From an uncultured Bacilli bacterium (GTDB taxonomy: Bacteria > Bacillota_I > Bacilli_A > RF39 > UBA660), in assembly GCA_934096275.1 (NCBI GenBank), contig CAKOLK010000001.1, positions 15,876 through 79,875 of the forward strand: a stretch of DNA of 64,000 nt. The letters run 5' to 3'. Positions 12,181 to 53,127 of the stretch are shown in pieces. The position numbers and the translations under genes are program-made. The notes below the pieces were generated by a model that searched no databases, was not told the origin of the DNA, and saw only the letters and a program-made list of their open reading frames with translations. Positions within the stretch are counted from its first letter, which is position 1; each line of letters begins with the position of its first letter.

Positions 12181-13243
12181 TCAATCAGTAAGTTGATATG
12201 GTTGTTCCGAAGATCCATTTCCACTTGAAATCTTCACGTTAAATGAAAGACTTAGGACTGGGCGCACGGCATACTCGTTGTATTCGACGTTGCCGAAGTA
12301 GACGCTACCGTCATCATTAACAAGGAAAGCGAGGCGATCAGCTTCCGAAACCTGTGGAAGTAACCATGTAGTTACACTTTTATCTAACCAATTATTTGCT
12401 GTTTTACAATTTACAGAAGAAATATACTTATATAAACTGTTTGTACATTCTTTTGAAGCCGCATATCCATAGTCACTCGCATACATTAATGCTATTTTTT
12501 TATTTGCATCATTTTGTATTATTGGATTTGTTACATAATAATATCCTGTTCTATTTGCTTCATTTTTTCTTTCGTATTGCCACATTACATCCGATATCAC
12601 ACTTGCTTCTTTGTATCCTCCAAGATAATATTTTGTTGTTCCAATCATGTTTTTTGCATCACTTGTTAATGTATTATAATAATCATTATTTAAATATGTA
12701 TTTAATGTTCCTGTTACCCAATTGTTATACGTTTCAGTTGTTGTATCTTCTGTTTTATTCCAATATTTATTTCCTATTGAAGTATCTTTTATTATTTTAA
12801 TTCTATTTTCTACATTGCCATCTGTATCCTCGGTTGGTATTATTCCTATTATTCTCCATACTTCATTATTAAAAGTTACATAATTGTTTACATTTCCTCC
12901 ACGATATCTATACTCTGTTGCAAATCTTTCATCCACTTGAAGTGTATCATCTATTTCATGGGTTACTTTTTCTAATCCTCCTGTTCCTACATTAGATTCC
13001 GCAAAGTATAAGGCATTGTCTTTAGCTTTAACATATATTTTGATAGTATTCTTTGATTCTATACTACTACTCCATTTTGCATATGATGTATTTGTATAAT
13101 TATAAGAAATAATACCCGTTAATAAAAGTACAAAAATACCTATTAATGATAATAGATATTTATTATACTCTTTTACATCTTTAAATAAAGGGTTTATCTT
13201 ATAAGTATTTTGCCCCCCCCCCATACGAATATTTGTTTTCCAT
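12181..13243 (-). CDS. poly-G-gated surface-protein family, member 1 (short class); phase-OFF from the SD-proximal start in this assembly
   Basis: Signal anchor YLLSLIGIFVLLLTGIISYNY+TNTSYAKWSSS, then a ~280-aa domain shared with members 2-4 (TEYRYRGG..NNYVTFNNE.WRIIGIIPTEDT; KKIALMYASDYGYAAS; VRPVLSLS). GGAGG (13251-13255) lies 7 nt before the ATG at 13243. From that ATG the G10 tract reads MENKYSYGGGAKYL-stop. The long ORF is in frame only with ATG 13257 (inside the SD) or with the TATG at the tract edge. Confidence 0.8.
13213..13222 (-). repeat. homopolymeric G10 tract (C10 on the plus strand) in codons 8+ of member 1
   Basis: Counted by hand: tg-cccccccccc-atacg. Confidence 0.85.
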
Positions 13244-42192: not shown

Positions 42193-42400
42193 GCACGTAT
42201 CTTTGGGCGCCGACTTCATTATCTTTTTAAAAGAAATGGGGTGATAGTTATGAAAGATAAGATTTTCTAATTTTAGCACTGCTTGTGATTATTTATTTAT
42301 TATTAAAGTAATTTAAAATAAATGCGACGTCTCTCTGATATAGGGAAACGTCGCATCGCTGAAAATAAACATCGAAGTCGGCGTTCAAGGAACGTGCTTC
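42193..42400 (+). other. predicted structured RNA, cassette C (the ORF has decayed)
   Basis: 5' element at 42193-42217 and 3' element at 42374-42400, with ends perfectly complementary (GCACGU.../...CGCCGACUUC). SD-region stem CUUCAUU (42214-42220) / AAUGGGG (42235-42241). Central hairpin at 42324-42354. Confidence 0.5.
42250..42270 (+). pseudogene. truncated remnant of the small hydrophobic ORF (MKDKIF-stop)
   Basis: The ATG after GGGGTGA is at the homologous position to cassettes A and B, but a stop follows six codons later. Other frames give no TM-like peptide. Confidence 0.5.
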
Positions 42401-46956: not shown

Positions 46957-47511
46957 TCAAACATTTTGTATTTCTCTCTTAAAATCTTCTTTTAATATTT
47001 GCATATATATACTATCATGATAGATTCCTTCAAGATAGTGAGATTGTTTTCTTACTCCTAGTTCTTTGAAACCACATTTTAGATAGCATTTTTTAGCACG
47101 TTCATTGGTATCTAACAGTTCAAGCATGATGTTATTAAGATTTAAATGATTAAATGCATAATCAAGTAATAGATTGATTGCTTCAGTTCCATAGTCTTTT
47201 TCTCTTTCATCATTTTTACCTATCATAATACCAAGTGTTGCAGTTTTATTTATATGATCAATATTCATAAGTGATATATTACCTATTAGTTCATCATTTG
47301 ATAGTTTAACTATAGAAAGGTATACTTTATCATCTTTTCTTGCTCTTTCTACAAAGTCTTTTTCATCTTCAAGAGTAAATATTTTACTATATTGATCTAA
47401 GTATTTAGATGTTTCATAGTCATTGATCCATTCAGTAAATGAAATATAATCATCTTCACTAAATGGTGATAAGTAAATACTTTTTCCTATTATTTTTTTA
47501 TAATGTTTCAT
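46957..47511 (-). CDS. GNAT family N-acetyltransferase (RimJ/RimL-like)
   Basis: ...GYGTEAINLLLDYAFNHLNLNNIMLELLDTNERAKKCYLKCGFKE. Confidence 0.75.
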   Translation of the reverse strand: MKHYKKIIGKSIYLSPFSEDDYISFTEWINDYETSKYLDQYSKIFTLEDEKDFVERARKDDKVYLSIVKLSNDELIGNISLMNIDHINKTATLGIMIGKNDEREKDYGTEAINLLLDYAFNHLNLNNIMLELLDTNERAKKCYLKCGFKELGVRKQSHYLEGIYHDSIYMQILKEDFKREIQNV

Positions 47512-49241
47512 TATTTTACCTCTTTTATATATAAATCTTTTAATTGATTTTCATCAACATAATTTGGAGCATCAGTCATTAAACAACTAGCACTAGTAGT
47601 CTTAGGAAATGCAATAACATCACGAATATTTTCTGTATTTGTAAGTAGCATTGTTAATCTATCTAAACCTAGCGCAAGTCCTCCATGTGGTGGTGTTCCA
47701 TATTTGAATGCTTCAAGTAGGAAGCCAAACTTTTCATTTTTTTCTTCTTCAGTTAACCCAATTGTTTCAAATATTTTACTTTGTAGATTCTTATCATGAA
47801 TTCTTATTGATCCTCCACCTGCTTCATACCCATTTATTACTATATCATAAGCATCTGATAAGCATTTTAATGGATCAGTATTTAATAGATTTATATCACT
47901 ATCTTTTACTTTAGTAAATGGATGATGAAGTGCAACATATCTTTTTTCTTCTTCATCATATTCAAACATTGGAAAATCTACTACCCAAAGTAATTTATAA
48001 TCATCTTTATTAATCAAATTAAGATCATTTGCAAGCTTTAATCTTAAAGCACCAAGTGATTGTTTCACTACATCATAAGATCCTCCGGATAATAAAACAA
48101 GATCATTTTCTTCTAAAGAAAGGAGGTTGATTAAATTATTTTGAACATCTTCATTCATAAACTTAATTATACTTCCATTTAATGTTTCATTATATTTTAA
48201 GTAAACTACTCCAGTACTTTTATATTTTTTTACAAATTCACTCAAACTATCTAAATCTTTTCTTGAAAACTTATCACTAGCATTTTTAACTACTAAACAG
48301 TTTACTATTTCTTTATCCTTAAACATAGGAAATTCTGTATCTTTGAATATACTAGTAACATCATTTATTTTCATATCAAATCTTAAATCTGGTTTATCAC
48401 TTCCATATAAATCCATAGCCTTTTTATATGGCATTCTATCAAGTGGTAGTTTGATATCTATTCCTTTTATTTCTTTGAATAGTTTTTGTAGTAGTCCTTC
48501 GGTTATACTAATAACATCATCTTGGTTTACAAAACTCATTTCCATATCTATTTGAGTAAATTCTGGTTGACGATCAGCACGTAAATCTTCATCTCTAAAG
48601 CATTTTGCTATTTGGAAATATCTTTCAAAGCCTGATACCATAAGTAATTGTTTAAATATTTGAGGAGATTGAGGTAGTGCATAAAACTTATTTTTGTTTA
48701 CACGAGATGGCACTAAATAGTCTCTTGCTCCTTCAGGAGTCGATTTACATAGTATTGGTGTTTCTACTTCAAGAAAATGATTATCTGATAAGTAGTTTCT
48801 TGCTATCATACATATTTTATGTCTTGTGATAAACTTACTAGATAAATCTTCTCTTCTAAGATCTAGATAACGATATTTTAGACGTGTTTCTTCATTAGCA
48901 TTAGTGTTGTTATTAACCTCAAAAGGTGTATCGAGTGATTCATTTAAGACTTCTAAAGATGAAACTTCTACTTCAATATCTCCGGTTAATAAATTAGGAT
49001 TTTTACTAGTTCTTTCTATTACTTTACCAAACACCTTAATTACACTTTCATTTTTTAATGATGATAACTCTTCGAAAAATGTTTTTTCTGGAGATACCAC
49101 TAATTGTATAATTCCACTGCGGTCACGAAGATCGATAAATAGCATTCCTCCAAGGTTTCTTTTTTTACTAATCCATCCATATAATTCTACTTCTTGATTA
49201 ATATTTTTGATACTTAAATCAGTATTAAATATTTTTTTCAT
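47511..49241 (-). CDS. aspS: aspartate--tRNA ligase
   Basis: OB-fold N-terminus (V.L.GW....[14 protein letters not shown]), class II motifs ([16 protein letters not shown]; GGGSIRIH; GLALGLDR). The start is at the ATG after AAAGGAA (MKKIFNT...). Confidence 0.93.
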
Positions 49242-49261
49242 TTTATCATTCCTTTCAATAA

Positions 49262-49455
49262 AAAAACAGTTATATCCCAAAGGGACGAATAACTGTTAAA
49301 TCCGCGGTACCACCCAATTTATTATATAAAATATAATCTCTTTATTTATAACGGCAATCAACCGGCTTGTTCTACTTAATTCCTCAAGCACTCATGGTGT
49401 CTTTCATATTTAATTTTATACTAGTTCTCACCAAACACTAACTCTCTTAAATAAA
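49262..49455 (-). promoter_or_regulatory. T-box riboswitch leader of aspS (specifier GAC)
   Basis: The minus strand carries AGAGAG/GGUGAGA stem I elements and GAAAGACAC, which contains the GAC (Asp) specifier followed by A. The T-box core is AAUUGGGUGGUACCGCGG, and the terminator is AACAGUUAU...AUAACUGUU+UUUU. Confidence 0.8.
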
Positions 49456-49506
49456 CTTAAATATTACTTTTCCAATCAACGTTTATGTATAGATTATAGA
49501 ATATTT

Positions 49507-51838
49507 TTAGTTTGTTGTCAAGACTGCACGAGTTGAGTAGTCACTGTGCGCTTCACCATCGCTGGTGTTGAAGAAGAACGCGCCGGCGTAATCACCATTG
49601 TAATAGATCCCACCACGGAAGAGCCAAGGGATGAAATTGTTAGAGAAAACAGCTTGATCTGAATACCATGATTTAGTGGTTGAAGATGTTGGTGACATTT
49701 CAATTGTGGCGTCTCCTAACTTTCCTCTTGTATATTCTGTTTTACTTGTTCCATAACTATATTTATCATAATATTTCTTGTTTGGGAATGCATATGTTCC
49801 TGTAAATGATGTTTTATCATTTCCTAAATATCCTGTAAATGCTGAATTTTTATTACTAGATGTTGAATATCCACTCATCTGTTGTCCATTACTATGTACC
49901 ATATTACCCATCACGTATTCACATGTTCCACCACTCATGTCATATACTCCATATACATTTCCTGTTGTTGATGCGCTTTGTCCTAAAGTTGTTGTGTATC
50001 CATTACATGTTGAACCCCTACTTGCTGAACCTTCACTTTGTGGTCCACATCCTGTTGTATTTGTATTTGCACTATTTATTGCTATTTCTTTATTTATTCC
50101 ATATTTACTATGTGATAGATATGTTACTGCTCCCCATTCCATATTCTTCATCATATGAGTTTCAGCGGTTGTTGCAATACCATATTGGTTGCCACTTTCT
50201 CTCATCTTTTGGATTCCATTAAAGAATGTTCCTACTTGTGCTCCTCTCCATGATGTTACGTTTGGTTTTATTTGAGGTCTTATTGTTTGTAGGTTGCAGT
50301 CTGTACCTATTGCTACATAGTTAGTAGGTGTACATGTAGTATCACTTGATACTTCAAACTTTCCTACCCATATTCCTGTTAATCCTTCCCCTGTTTCTCT
50401 TACATTGTTATCATTTTTATCCCACCAGAATGCTGGATGCGTATAGGTTGATGTTCCTGCTTTTAATGATCCATTTGTACTATCTGTACATGTTTCTGAT
50501 GTACTACTAGTTCCAGTTACTGCGTCTACACATTTTATTGTACCACTACTATTTGTACCGCTTTCAAATTTTATTTTGATTTCTTCTGGTGTATTAGTGT
50601 TTAAATATGTATATGTATATCTTGGTATCCACACCCACATTGTATTGATACTTAGCATTGGTATCTCTGTTCCCGCATCTGCACTTACTATATCACTTCT
50701 TTTGCATACTGAACTACTGCAATTTTTTGTAGTTCCATCTTTTAGAGTTAACTTAGTCACAGGCACACCTTCTTTAGTATATTTATCAGCACTTGTTACG
50801 CTATGATTGCTAACTGAATTAATTTTATACATGGTACTACAAGTAGTGTTGTCTGTACAATGATATTTATCAATAACATCAGTATCAACATCATCATAAG
50901 ATGTATTTGTGAGTGTGTATAATCCTGTATCTTCATTAAATGTGTAAGATTTTCCAAACATGTAATTAGGTGGATAGAATTGTCCTATGGAATACATAGT
51001 ATAATCACTACCATCATAAGAATCTATAAAAAATGCTTTGTTAGAGCCAAATATATTAAACATGATTATGGCATATCCATATTCATCAATGTAATCGCTT
51101 AGTTTCATGCCATTGTTATCATATAAGTCTGAAAGAGATCCTTCTATTACTCCACTGCTGAAATCATAGTCTTCTTCCCATGTGTAATCATCATAGGACA
51201 ATAAGTTTACTTGACCATCCAATTGAGCCTCAGTTATGATAAGAGAACCGCTTGGACTTGATATATTATATATTCCAAATGCCATGTTATCAGTTTTATA
51301 ATATACCATTAAATTAACATAATCATATTCTGTGTTATTTATTGTAACTGGAGCATTCCAACCAAATTCAAGACTTGAAGATAAATTAAGCGAAATATTT
51401 TTATCAACTTTTTCTTTATACTTACTACTTAGCGCATCTGTTACTGTTACTGCGTTAGCCCACATTTTATTATTGTAATCATACCACTTATTAGACGCGT
51501 TTGAATTGGTTGCGTCTGCTTTTCTCCATACATTGTTATTACTATCATAATATACTGGTATCATATTACTTGTTAATACTGGTTTATTTGCACCGCTTGT
51601 ATCAAGGTTTACGTTGTTGCTTTTTACATAAAGTTTCAATACATTTTTAGATTCTACACTACTACTCCACTTTGCATATGATGTATTTGTATAATTGTAA
51701 GATATTATTCCCGAAAGTAATAGCACAAAAATACCTATTAATGATAATAGATATTTATTATACTCTTTTACGTCTTTAAATAAGGGATTTATTTTATAAG
51801 ATTTTTGCCCCCCCCCCGAACGAATTATTGTTTGTCAT
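49507..51838 (-). CDS. poly-G-gated surface-protein family, member 5 (long class); unambiguously phase-OFF in this assembly
   Basis: GGAGG (51846-51850), 7 nt, ATG at 51838, then MTNNNSF plus G10 gives ...GGGAKIL-stop. The main frame (..QKSYKINPLFKDVKEYNKYLLSLIGIFVLLLSGIIS..) is closed upstream by TGA and has no ATG/GTG/TTG before the anchor. The tract edge here is TTC-G, so no TATG exists. Confidence 0.8.
51808..51817 (-). repeat. homopolymeric G10 tract of member 5
   Basis: Hand count: gccc + ccccccc + g gives 10 C. Confidence 0.85.
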
Positions 51839-51874
51839 AGTTTTGCCTCCGTTTTGACTATTTTGTCTGGTTTT

Positions 51875-51957
51875 ATTTTACAACAAAAAAAGCACTTTTT
51901 CAAGTACTATTTCTTCTACTCAATAAACTTAACACATAAACAATTATTTGTTATTAT
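51875..51957. promoter_or_regulatory. back-to-back divergent promoters (member 5 / cassette D)
   Basis: Minus strand: TTGAAA (51898-51903), 17 nt, TAAAAT (51875-51880), with GTACTTGAAAAAGTGC at 51892-51907. Plus strand: TTAACA (51929-51934), 17 nt, TATTAT (51952-51957). Confidence 0.55.
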
Positions 51958-51964
51958 TATTTTA

Positions 51965-52222
51965 GGAGATGTGTTAATTGTTGGTACTCCTCTGTTCTAC
52001 TGTTTCTTAAGGGGGCAAGTAAACGGGAGTGATGTCTATGGTGAAAGGATTTAATTATGTACAGTTTGATTGCATTTTGTGTAGTTTTATTGTTACTAAT
52101 TTTGTCAATAAAACATAATGACTAGAAAAGAAGTACCAACTCAACATGAGTAGGTACTTCTTTTCTTAAAATATTCACAACATAGAACAGAGACAGTACT
52201 AATCGTCAAATTAGCATATCTC
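51965..52222 (+). other. predicted structured small mRNA, type I toxin-like (cassette D, divergent version)
   Basis: The 5' element (51965-51996) can pair with the 3' element (52186-52222) in three helices of 14, 9 and 7 bp. All 4 non-Watson-Crick pairs are G-U in the plus sense. Hairpin GAAAAGAAGUACC...GGUACUUCUUUUC lies at 52125-52165. Confidence 0.5.
52057..52125 (+). CDS. 22-aa hydrophobic peptide MYSLIAFCVVLLLLILSIKHND (candidate type I toxin, divergent)
   Basis: AAAGGA lies 7 nt before the ATG. TTGATTGCATTTTG aligns with TTGATTTGCATCTTG of cassette A apart from a 1-nt indel. An alternative 26-aa frame from ATG 52038 is much less hydrophobic. Confidence 0.4.
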   Translation: MYSLIAFCVVLLLLILSIKHND

Positions 52223-52444
52223 TTTTTTTAGTATATTCTTTTTTATATACTAAATGTGTTCGTGAATAAATTATATCTTATTTTTAATAAAATATCAATA
52301 TCACTTCAGTGATTTGTGGTATTTTACTTCAGTATTTTGTGATAATTTATTATTTCAGAAAATATATTAATTATTACACTTCTCTGTTTTGTTATTTTTT
52401 CCTTTAACAAAACTAATGAAATTATTGCATTTATCATTAGTTTT

Positions 52445-53040
52445 GTCAACAACCCTGCACTCAAAGTGCAGGGCTTGTGTTTACTGCTGAAAGCAGTTTA
52501 TATGACTAAAAGTCAATTTGTTATTTTAAATGTTTTTTCTATATCATCTGTTTGATCTTCTATATATGCCTTTATTATTTCTTGTGTCACTGTTCCTACA
52601 CTTCTACAAAAATACCCTGGACTCCATAAATATTGTCCCCAATACTTTCTTTTTAATACATTGAACTCTTCTTGCAATATCTTTGAACTTCTTCCCTTTA
52701 GATATTGAACCAGTTTTGATGGCGCTATTGTCGGCGGACAACTTACTAACAAATGCACATGATTTCTTGTTATATTTCCTCGTATAATAGTTATCCCTCG
52801 GGCAACACATCCCTGCATTAATAATACTCTTAATCTTTGTGCTACTTTACCATTTAATACTTCATATCTATATTTTGTTGTCCAAACTATATGATATTGT
52901 ATATCATATTGTGTATGACTTCCTTTTCTCATCCAAATCCCCTGCCCTTGGCTAACTATTATACTACAAGACAATTAATTTGTCAGCCAGTTCTAAAAGA
53001 ATTTACGCGCTAAATCACGTGGCCTGGTACCAGGGGTTTA
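52445..53040 (-). mobile_element. IS200/IS605-family element (tnpA only), boundaries approximate
   Basis: A Y1/HUH transposase gene flanked by subterminal hairpins: CCCTGCACT-caa-AGTGCAGGG (52453-52473), ACTGCT-gaa-AGCAGT (52483-52497), and palindrome CCTGGTACCAGG (53023-53034). It is locally GC-richer than its surroundings. Confidence 0.6.
52513..52932 (-). CDS. tnpA: IS200/IS605 family transposase TnpA (Y1 HUH)
   Basis: YDIQYHIVWTTKYRY, HUH motif NHVHLLV, and catalytic-Tyr region WSPGYFCRSVG. The start is at MRKGSHT.... Confidence 0.88.
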   Translation of the reverse strand: MRKGSHTQYDIQYHIVWTTKYRYEVLNGKVAQRLRVLLMQGCVARGITIIRGNITRNHVHLLVSCPPTIAPSKLVQYLKGRSSKILQEEFNVLKRKYWGQYLWSPGYFCRSVGTVTQEIIKAYIEDQTDDIEKTFKITN

Positions 53041-53065: not shown

Positions 53066-53104
53066 TATAAAAAGTACCAGTTTAACATGGGCTGGCACTT
53101 ATTT
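53066..53104 (-). terminator. rho-independent terminator of dnaE
   Basis: On the minus strand: AAGUGCCAG-cccauguuaaa-CUGGUACUU + UUUAUAUAUU. Confidence 0.55.
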
Positions 53105-53127
53105 TAGTAAAATATCAATATTTTATG

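Follow-up and report, generated by a model that had tools for sequence, protein, structure and literature searches.

A probable type I toxin-antitoxin-like cassette with an end-to-end mRNA clamp, an overlapping leader frame and a convergent antisense gene in an uncultured gut Bacilli bacterium

Cassette D, a module of 370 bases in all, combines the mRNA of a 22-residue hydrophobic peptide with a predicted antisense gene that faces it and is, with a probability that we put at roughly three in four, an intact representative of a so far undescribed family of type I toxin-antitoxin-like cassettes. The module lies within a 64,000-nucleotide stretch of contig CAKOLK010000001.1 from an uncultured Bacilli bacterium (the window), whose low-GC DNA (26-29% GC) belongs to a MAG of 856 kb in 22 contigs; the sister genomes originate from Hadza gut metagenomes. 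As read from the sequence, its design appears to join the Gram-positive layout, an antisense RNA at the 3' end, to hok-like features, namely an end-to-end clamp of the mRNA and a mok-like leader frame. The fold-back clamp and overlapping leader, so far features of Gram-negative systems, and the 3' antisense RNA of Gram-positive ones would thereby meet in one cassette family, which would also widen the range of type I toxin-antitoxin-like systems to take in a bacterial family of uncultured gut Bacilli with small (~1 Mb), low-GC genomes. The cassettes are dense, with 11 in the 0.86 Mb of the own assembly, and were missed by gene callers and by all curated libraries.

The sense promoter is of the sigma-70 type and occupies 51929-51957 on the plus strand. 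It consists of a -35 element TTAACA (51929-51934; TTGACA in most paralogues), a 17-nt spacer with an extended -10 TG at 51949-51950, and a -10 element TATTAT (51952-51957), together matching the consensus at 10 of 12 positions. A previous reading of the same DNA, made from the letters without database searches (the sequence-only reading), had described this promoter and an element beginning at the predicted +1, and both are present. Transcription is predicted to start at 51964/51965 and to yield a plus-strand RNA of ~265 nt (51964-52229). The minimum free energy of 51965-52229 is -89.4 kcal/mol versus -52.0 +/- 4.3 for shuffled sequences (z = -8.7), with 0 of 200 shuffles folding as well; the minus strand of the cassette folds less well, at -64 (z = -5.7).

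Within this RNA, the peptide gene (52043-52125, plus strand) comprises a GAAAGGA Shine-Dalgarno (SD) sequence at 52043-52049, a gap of 7 nt, ATG 52057 and the stop codon TAG at 52123-52125. The SD, the ORF and the strong hairpin behind it (52125-52165) had all been named in the earlier reading, and all are found. The ORF, 52057-52125, encodes MYSLIAFCVVLLLLILSIKHND, a peptide of 22 aa with a mean hydropathy of +1.67, which places it among the small (<60 aa) hydrophobic ORFs of type I systems. Every full-length D-type copy encodes MY[SDGN]LIAFCVVLLLLI[LI][SA][IT]KH..., with 19-22 residues. Among 12 distinct ORF sequences, the ATG-52057 frame collects 274 synonymous versus 257 non-synonymous codon differences, and the other two frames of the same sequences 106/431 and 37/485. 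The conserved frame and its synonymous excess agree with the proposal that ATG 52057 serves the hydrophobic frame, and show this frame to be the one under purifying selection. The start codon of the peptide sits in an intra-ORF hairpin, where columns 109/121 switch from UA to AU in five sequences; with such compensatory synonymous changes, coding constraint and RNA structure are both visible. Across the family the peptide measures 20-26 aa and consists of a single hydrophobic helix, and relatives follow the pattern M-E/Y-x-L-I-(hydrophobic)12-15-K-x-K-N/D. From its size and hydrophobicity, the peptide would be toxic.

Directly after the stop codon, the palindromic hairpin GAAAAGAAGUACC-N15-GGUACUUCUUUUC (52125-52165) forms a perfect 13-bp stem, visible in the fold and in compensatory changes. 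Being bidirectional in form, it is proposed as the terminator of the antisense RNA, and it could also stop a large part of the sense transcripts short of the 3' arm of the clamp. The 3' arm contains a weak local hairpin abutting the U run, at -5.8 kcal/mol in cassette D and present in all 18 full-length copies scored (-2.3 to -11.6 kcal/mol). Together with the U run, this local hairpin would be a plausible sense terminator, later yielding to the clamp. A related hairpin stands in terminator position right after the dnaE stop (53128), on the same strand as the antisense gene (minus), which favours the view that the cassette hairpin, read on the minus strand, is a terminator. The dnaE terminator and its upstream flank ATATTGATATTTTACTAAAATAAG (53072-53120, minus) also resemble the central hairpin and the antisense -35 region, and by this resemblance the dnaE terminator would seem to be either a copy with an internal deletion or the origin of the antisense gene.

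The predicted antisense gene has a convergent promoter on the minus strand (52270-52298), with a -35 element TTGATA at 52298-52293, 17 nt and a -10 element TATAAT at 52275-52270, matching the consensus at 11 of 12 positions. The sequence-only reading had found no convincing antisense promoter here, a statement that this near-consensus element overturns. The promoter points inward from 40 nt past the sense U run, with a predicted +1 at ~52263, and in silico the arrangement is the 3' convergent layout of Gram-positive systems. It occupies the same place in 18 of 20 full-length copies and is also kept in three copies that retain the 3' half alone; it is lost in the D/B hybrids L072 and L096, both with an intact peptide ORF. 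The predicted antisense RNA of ~150 nt (predicted ends 52112 and 52263, minus strand) folds into three stem-loops (MFE -49.4, z = -7.2) and is complementary along its whole length to the hairpin, spacer and 3' arm of the sense RNA. In three orphans (L067, L071, L078), the promoter, 5' arm and start codons are lost and the hairpin, 3' arm, U run and convergent promoter are kept. The retention of exactly that 3' unit delimits the antisense gene and indicates that it can persist alone; antitoxins left without their partner are well known from type I systems. All seven genomes of the genus encode RNase III.

Nine A-type and two D-type cassettes occur in the own genome, and the second D-type copy, cassette E (contig C10, position 13449), is 74% identical to D. 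When the 7 species of the genus, the species-genome collection and metagenomes are taken together, the D-type numbers ~20 copies, which fall into three subtypes. Some are decayed: L073 is promoter-less and frame-fused, L075 carries an internal deletion, and L061 consists of the 5' half alone. The metagenome pattern scan returned ten matches, five of which are real cassettes and the others chance matches inside genes. At L057/L063 (G402:C24:9671-10389), two D-type cassettes stand in direct tandem, 455 bp from start to start and ~92-95% identical. In L072 (G402:C6:16438-16703) and L096, the antisense promoter region is swapped for the 3' half of a B-type (A-family) ORF plus hairpin, a hybrid structure that points to recombination between the two cassette families.

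The distribution of these copies bears on an alternative that we regard as unlikely, in which cassette D is an antisense-tuned gene for a small membrane protein and not a toxin-antitoxin system, with a benign role such as membrane-protein regulator or surface-gene partner. About half of the D-type copies (10/20) adjoin the promoter of a poly-G switched surface-protein gene, back-to-back, and the hybrids keep the ORF intact without an antisense promoter. Homology to known toxins is likewise absent: searches of Pfam and NCBIfam with six peptides at E up to 10 returned nothing relevant, Hok, Fst/Ldr, TxpA/BsrG, SprA/SprG and YonT included. [quoted passage not shown] Silencing in several layers, here by the clamp, SD sequestration and a start codon within a hairpin, is typical for toxic peptides (PMC8167048). 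For a toxin-antitoxin-like cassette, the frequent back-to-back pairing with poly-G phase-variable genes raises the testable idea that the cassettes stabilise or accompany hypervariable loci.

A leader frame, mok-like in position, occupies 52025-52118 on the plus strand. It begins at ATG 52038 behind the SD GGGAGTGAT (52025-52033), runs for 26 codons to a stop at 52116-52118 and overlaps the peptide ORF in the -1 register. ATG 52038 has a stronger SD than ATG 52057, GGGAGTGAT being part of an extended anti-16S match. The leader ATG precedes the peptide ATG by 19 nt in 14 of 20 D-type copies and by 18 nt, in frame with the peptide, in L073, a decayed copy; in the E subtype the whole leader start is deleted. 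The leader product is not conserved, with 8, 26, 35 or 54 residues among the copies (8 codons in L060). In 11 of 13 out-of-genus matches, the strong SD stands before an overlapping frame and not before the hydrophobic ORF; these frames have 34-59 codons and are unrelated in sequence, and the leader peptides of other genera cross the central hairpin in different registers.

Leader-to-peptide spacings of 4, 13, 16, 22, 31 and 34 nt occur outside the genus and 19 nt within it, and the value is always 1 mod 3 (full-leader copies of the own genus and 11 other genera). For seven spacings to differ by multiples of three, the chance is ~(1/3)^6, which suggests selection on the leader register. From this regularity, the register selected would be the one that carries the leader across the peptide ORF; in the third register, that of UNN codons, a stop is met immediately. 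A frame that reads NUN codons one base early is bound to stay open, which accounts for the open leader across the hydrophobic stretch. Past the peptide stop, its openness does not exceed that of the other frames (13, 13 and 11 stops per frame), so the leader length itself is not selected. The spacer was also considered as an N-terminal extension of the peptide, a candidate that is rejected since peptide-frame stops fall within the spacer in most relatives. In L104 and L106, from other genera, the leader start and a peptide-frame ATG follow each other at a distance of 4 nt (ATGAATG). Both frames could there be served by a single SD, and these loci represent a possible intermediate between single-ORF and dual-ORF forms.

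The properties of the two frames also make it highly unlikely that the functional product is RNA only (an sRNA or sRNA pair), or else the longer leader frame, with the hydrophobic ORF incidental. The strongest SD does serve the leader and not the peptide frame, leader frames do attain their 34-59 codons in other genera, and both strands fold far better than shuffles. Synonymous substitutions, however, concentrate in the peptide frame, and the peptide pattern is kept across 12 genera, whereas the leader peptides are unrelated. The openness of the leader, automatic over the hydrophobic stretch and without excess past the peptide stop, and the deletion of the leader in the E subtype speak equally against such a product.

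The two ends of the sense RNA are joined by the clamp. Its 5' arm (51965-51999, plus strand) makes 34 pairs to 52183-52223 and is 99% paired in 13 copies; the 3' arm runs straight into the U7 at 52223-52229, so that the 3' element as a whole, defined by fold and comparison, spans 52183-52229 on the plus strand. The first 35 nt pair with the last ~41 nt of the RNA in helices of 15, 9 and 10 bp, that is 34 bp with 5 G·U pairs. The pairing of the two ends stands as described in the earlier reading; the sizes given there (14, 9 and 7 bp with four G·U) do not. A CUCC/CCUC anti-SD tract is located in the 5' arm at 51987-51992. With the covarying 34-bp clamp, the start codon in a conserved hairpin and the CUCC anti-SD, the mRNA carries the restraints of a type I toxin mRNA.

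The consensus fold of 13 D-type RNAs contains 70 pairs. In the 13 paralogues and orthologues, 97.6% of cells are paired versus 37-53% when the partners are slid. Changes in the clamp within the D-type set are largely one-sided, from GC to GU or from AU to GU, and the wobbles are strongly asymmetric: in the plus sense, G·U and A·C stand at 55:4, with all four A·C cells in the decaying copy L073, and at 51:4. Such an excess of G·U over A·C fits selection on a plus-sense RNA and not on DNA inverted repeats. It is on this asymmetry, which DNA repeats would lack, that we reject the reading of the arms as terminal inverted repeats of a non-autonomous MITE-like DNA element: the multi-copy, dispersed unit of ~265 bp with ~35-bp inverted ends and the adjoining IS200-type transposase gene would suit it, but compensatory changes preserve pairing across genera, the helix begins at the predicted +1 and finishes at the U run, and the IS200 copy is an insertion absent at the orthologous locus of a sister species (L055/L042), leaving this reading hardly any chance. 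Since the clamp is selected in the plus sense, some sense transcription must pass the central hairpin and reach the U run.

BLASTN at the family level finds D-type copies in the own genus alone, and a covariance model is therefore needed to see the wider family. Model R1, built on the D-type RNA, matches over its full length in 12 further genera of the family, whereas the order's other families give no match among the 401 genomes of each sample. Under the strict filters applied, with four candidates scored per genome, this distribution is a lower bound. Every match is headed by a promoter of its own, and its 5' (U)AGAGAUA... segment pairs with a ...UAUCUCU that precedes a U run; a CCUC tract opposite a GGAGG SD, a central hairpin and a 21-26-aa ORF of the pattern M-E-x-L-I-(hydrophobic)-K-x-K-N/D are likewise present. 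In 23 model-aligned matches, 92.6% of cells pair versus 68.9% in shuffled and 39-49% in slid alignments. With the alignment fitted to the model, changes on both sides occur in 62 of the 70 pairs, including 31 of the 34 clamp pairs. The closing helix thus covaries across 13 genera, which upholds the earlier view that the architecture is conserved as the primary sequence diverges. By a simple rule, a convergent promoter is found 15-55 nt past the 3' end in 12 of 17 members versus 25% of shuffles, and in most other members it falls just past the 90 nt that were scanned. Covariation is recorded cleanly enough to guide mutational tests, and model R1 is usable for annotating such loci in gut metagenomes.

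Compared with known systems, cassette D appears by sequence and fold to be a member of no named family, and would represent a new family of a known kind, type I toxin-antitoxin-like. Rfam gives sub-threshold chance matches alone, the best being sau-5971 at 26 bits versus a gathering score of 90. Hok/Sok (PF01848; Rfam Sok) matches neither the peptide nor the RNA, and the antisense promoter here lies on the 3' side. Literature searches found no described type I system in this lineage. In par (fst RNA I/RNA II, E. faecalis pAD1), a 5' 'upstream helix' between the extreme 5' end and a downstream segment stabilises the toxin mRNA, and the convergent RNA I and RNA II share a terminator. The par interaction proceeds through direct repeats outside the overlap (PMC8594479), and cassette D has no match to the Fst/Ldr models.

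In Gram-positive families, 3' convergent antisense RNAs are the rule (PMC8594479). The B. subtilis systems bsrG/SR4 and txpA/RatA share with cassette D a small hydrophobic peptide, a 3' convergent antisense gene, predicted in cassette D, with ~100+ nt of perfect complementarity (PMC8594479) and a duplex expected to be a substrate of RNase III; txpA likewise has an unusually strong SD. SR4 binds the bsrG 3' end and alters the structure around the SD (PMC8167048), and a similar restructuring of the SD on 3'-end binding is predicted in D's own subtype too. Their peptides, however, are 38-59 aa long versus 20-26 aa here, with no sequence or profile similarity in peptide or RNA. Unlike in bsrG and txpA, the predicted antisense target here is one strand of a 34-bp end-to-end clamp, and an overlapping leader frame is present.

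The Gram-negative systems resemble cassette D in the other half of its design. In hok, the mRNA ends fold back and expression is coupled to mok, and in aapA1 there is a long-distance interaction (PMC8167048). The hok/mok/Sok systems (R1, enterobacterial chromosomes; also ldrD/ldrX) share the 5'/3' fold-back of the mRNA, an overlapping leader with its own SD in another frame that starts just upstream of the toxin start (PMC8167048), and multiple chromosomal copies with decayed members. They differ in that Sok acts at the leader initiation region, on the 5' side and inside the mRNA, whereas the predicted antisense RNA here lies at the 3' end. The host here is Gram-positive, Hok peptide homology is absent, and an RNA deprived of its 3' arm is predicted to refold so that the SD tends to be shut, not opened. 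In aapA1/IsoA1 of Helicobacter pylori, the full-length mRNA is locked by a 5'-3' interaction, as in cassette D, and the SD is sequestered by successive alternative structures (PMC8167048, PMC6733600); IsoA1, however, overlaps the 5' UTR and ORF, a leader frame is missing, and peptide and phylum are unrelated.

By analogy with txpA/RatA, bsrG/SR4, hok/mok/Sok and aapA1/IsoA1 (PMC8167048, PMC8594479), the clamp, starting within a base of the +1, would protect and silence the mRNA, and the CUCC tract next to or within the 5' arm could sequester the strong SD. The ~150-nt antisense RNA would pair with the 3' arm, spacer and hairpin in a duplex of at least 100 bp, which RNase III would destroy. The peptide would be made only once the unstable antisense RNA is depleted, and would then insert into the membrane and inhibit growth. 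Leader translation may modulate that of the peptide: the two could be coupled, as in mok and hok, or could compete for ribosomes.

A fuller scheme of hybrid control, which would be without precedent, is tentative, and we rather doubt that it holds as a whole. In this scheme, the clamp and the mok-like leader would act together with a 3' antisense RNA that targets a clamp strand: displacement would free the 5' arm, whose CUCC would close the leader SD, leader translation would open the hairpin at the peptide start, and the strict 1-mod-3 register, kept across 12 genera, would be selected for coupling. When the 3' arm is masked, the unpaired probability of the SD falls from 0.30-0.74 to 0.01-0.20 in D's own subtype. 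In other subtypes and genera this closure is inconsistent, a clear drop elsewhere being seen in two distant relatives alone, and a universal switch in which the antisense RNA flips the anti-SD is rejected on that ground.

The cassette A family resembles D in its promoter module, clamp, SD hairpin, hydrophobic ORF, central hairpin and convergent promoter, and in its genomic niche beside poly-G surface-protein genes. Homology to cassette A is clear for the promoter and the upstream 85 nt alone, the sense promoter region being homologous to the cassette A/B promoters (family D13, 83%). The homology of the ORF region claimed in the sequence-only reading has marginal support, and the pairwise local alignment of the transcribed parts stays inside the shuffle range. 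Within the window, significant D/A similarity is confined to the promoter. The quoted 14-15-nt similarity is at chance level, with 2 matches versus 2.2 expected. Searches of the D-type RNAs with the A-type profile (nhmmer) give marginal matches (E 2e-4 to 5e-3 in a 5-kb database, with high bias), in which the A-type start codon falls on the D-type upstream ATG. Given the chance-level 15-mer, the shuffle-range alignment and the marginal, biased nhmmer matches, homology of the transcribed parts is not claimed.

The two families differ in their coding plan. The A-type cassettes, like L113 and L121, have a single ORF whose strong SD directly serves a K-rich N-terminus and hydrophobic helix, whereas the D-type has a leader and a +1-frame peptide. 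A 1-nt indel had been proposed to move the hydrophobic frame away from that of A. The marginal start alignment and the single-ORF relatives L113 and L121 make such a shift from an A-like single-ORF ancestor plausible; against it, the transcribed parts are not significantly alike. The arms, hairpins and antisense promoters differ between A and D, which makes cross-regulation unlikely. In cassette C (42250-42312), the A-type ORF is frameshifted (MKDKIF-stop) and the hydrophobic part LILALLVIIYLLLK lies in another frame; the RNA elements and both promoters are kept, and intact versions are found at C4:15223 and C10:9016.

In the neighbourhood of cassette D, the sense promoter stands back-to-back with that of a surface-protein gene (TTGAAA-17-TAAAAT). 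This gene starts at 51838 (51801-51855, minus) with an SD-ATG and a 7-codon leader, followed by a run of 10 G that breaks its frame; 9 or 12 G would fuse the frame to the ORF 49507-51726. The G-run at the gene start is a slipped-strand phase-variation switch, and paralogous large surface-protein genes with G-run starts lie at 13206, 33833, 41922 and 45560. On the other side, an IS200-type insertion sits between dnaE and cassette D (region 52445-53040); its tnpA (52513-52974, minus) encodes a Y1 transposase (Pfam PF01797, E = 7e-41), and the orthologous locus in the sister genome G291 is free of it. A T-box leader (49278-49488, minus; Rfam RF00230, 130 bits) is located upstream of the aspartyl-tRNA synthetase gene at 47511-49280.
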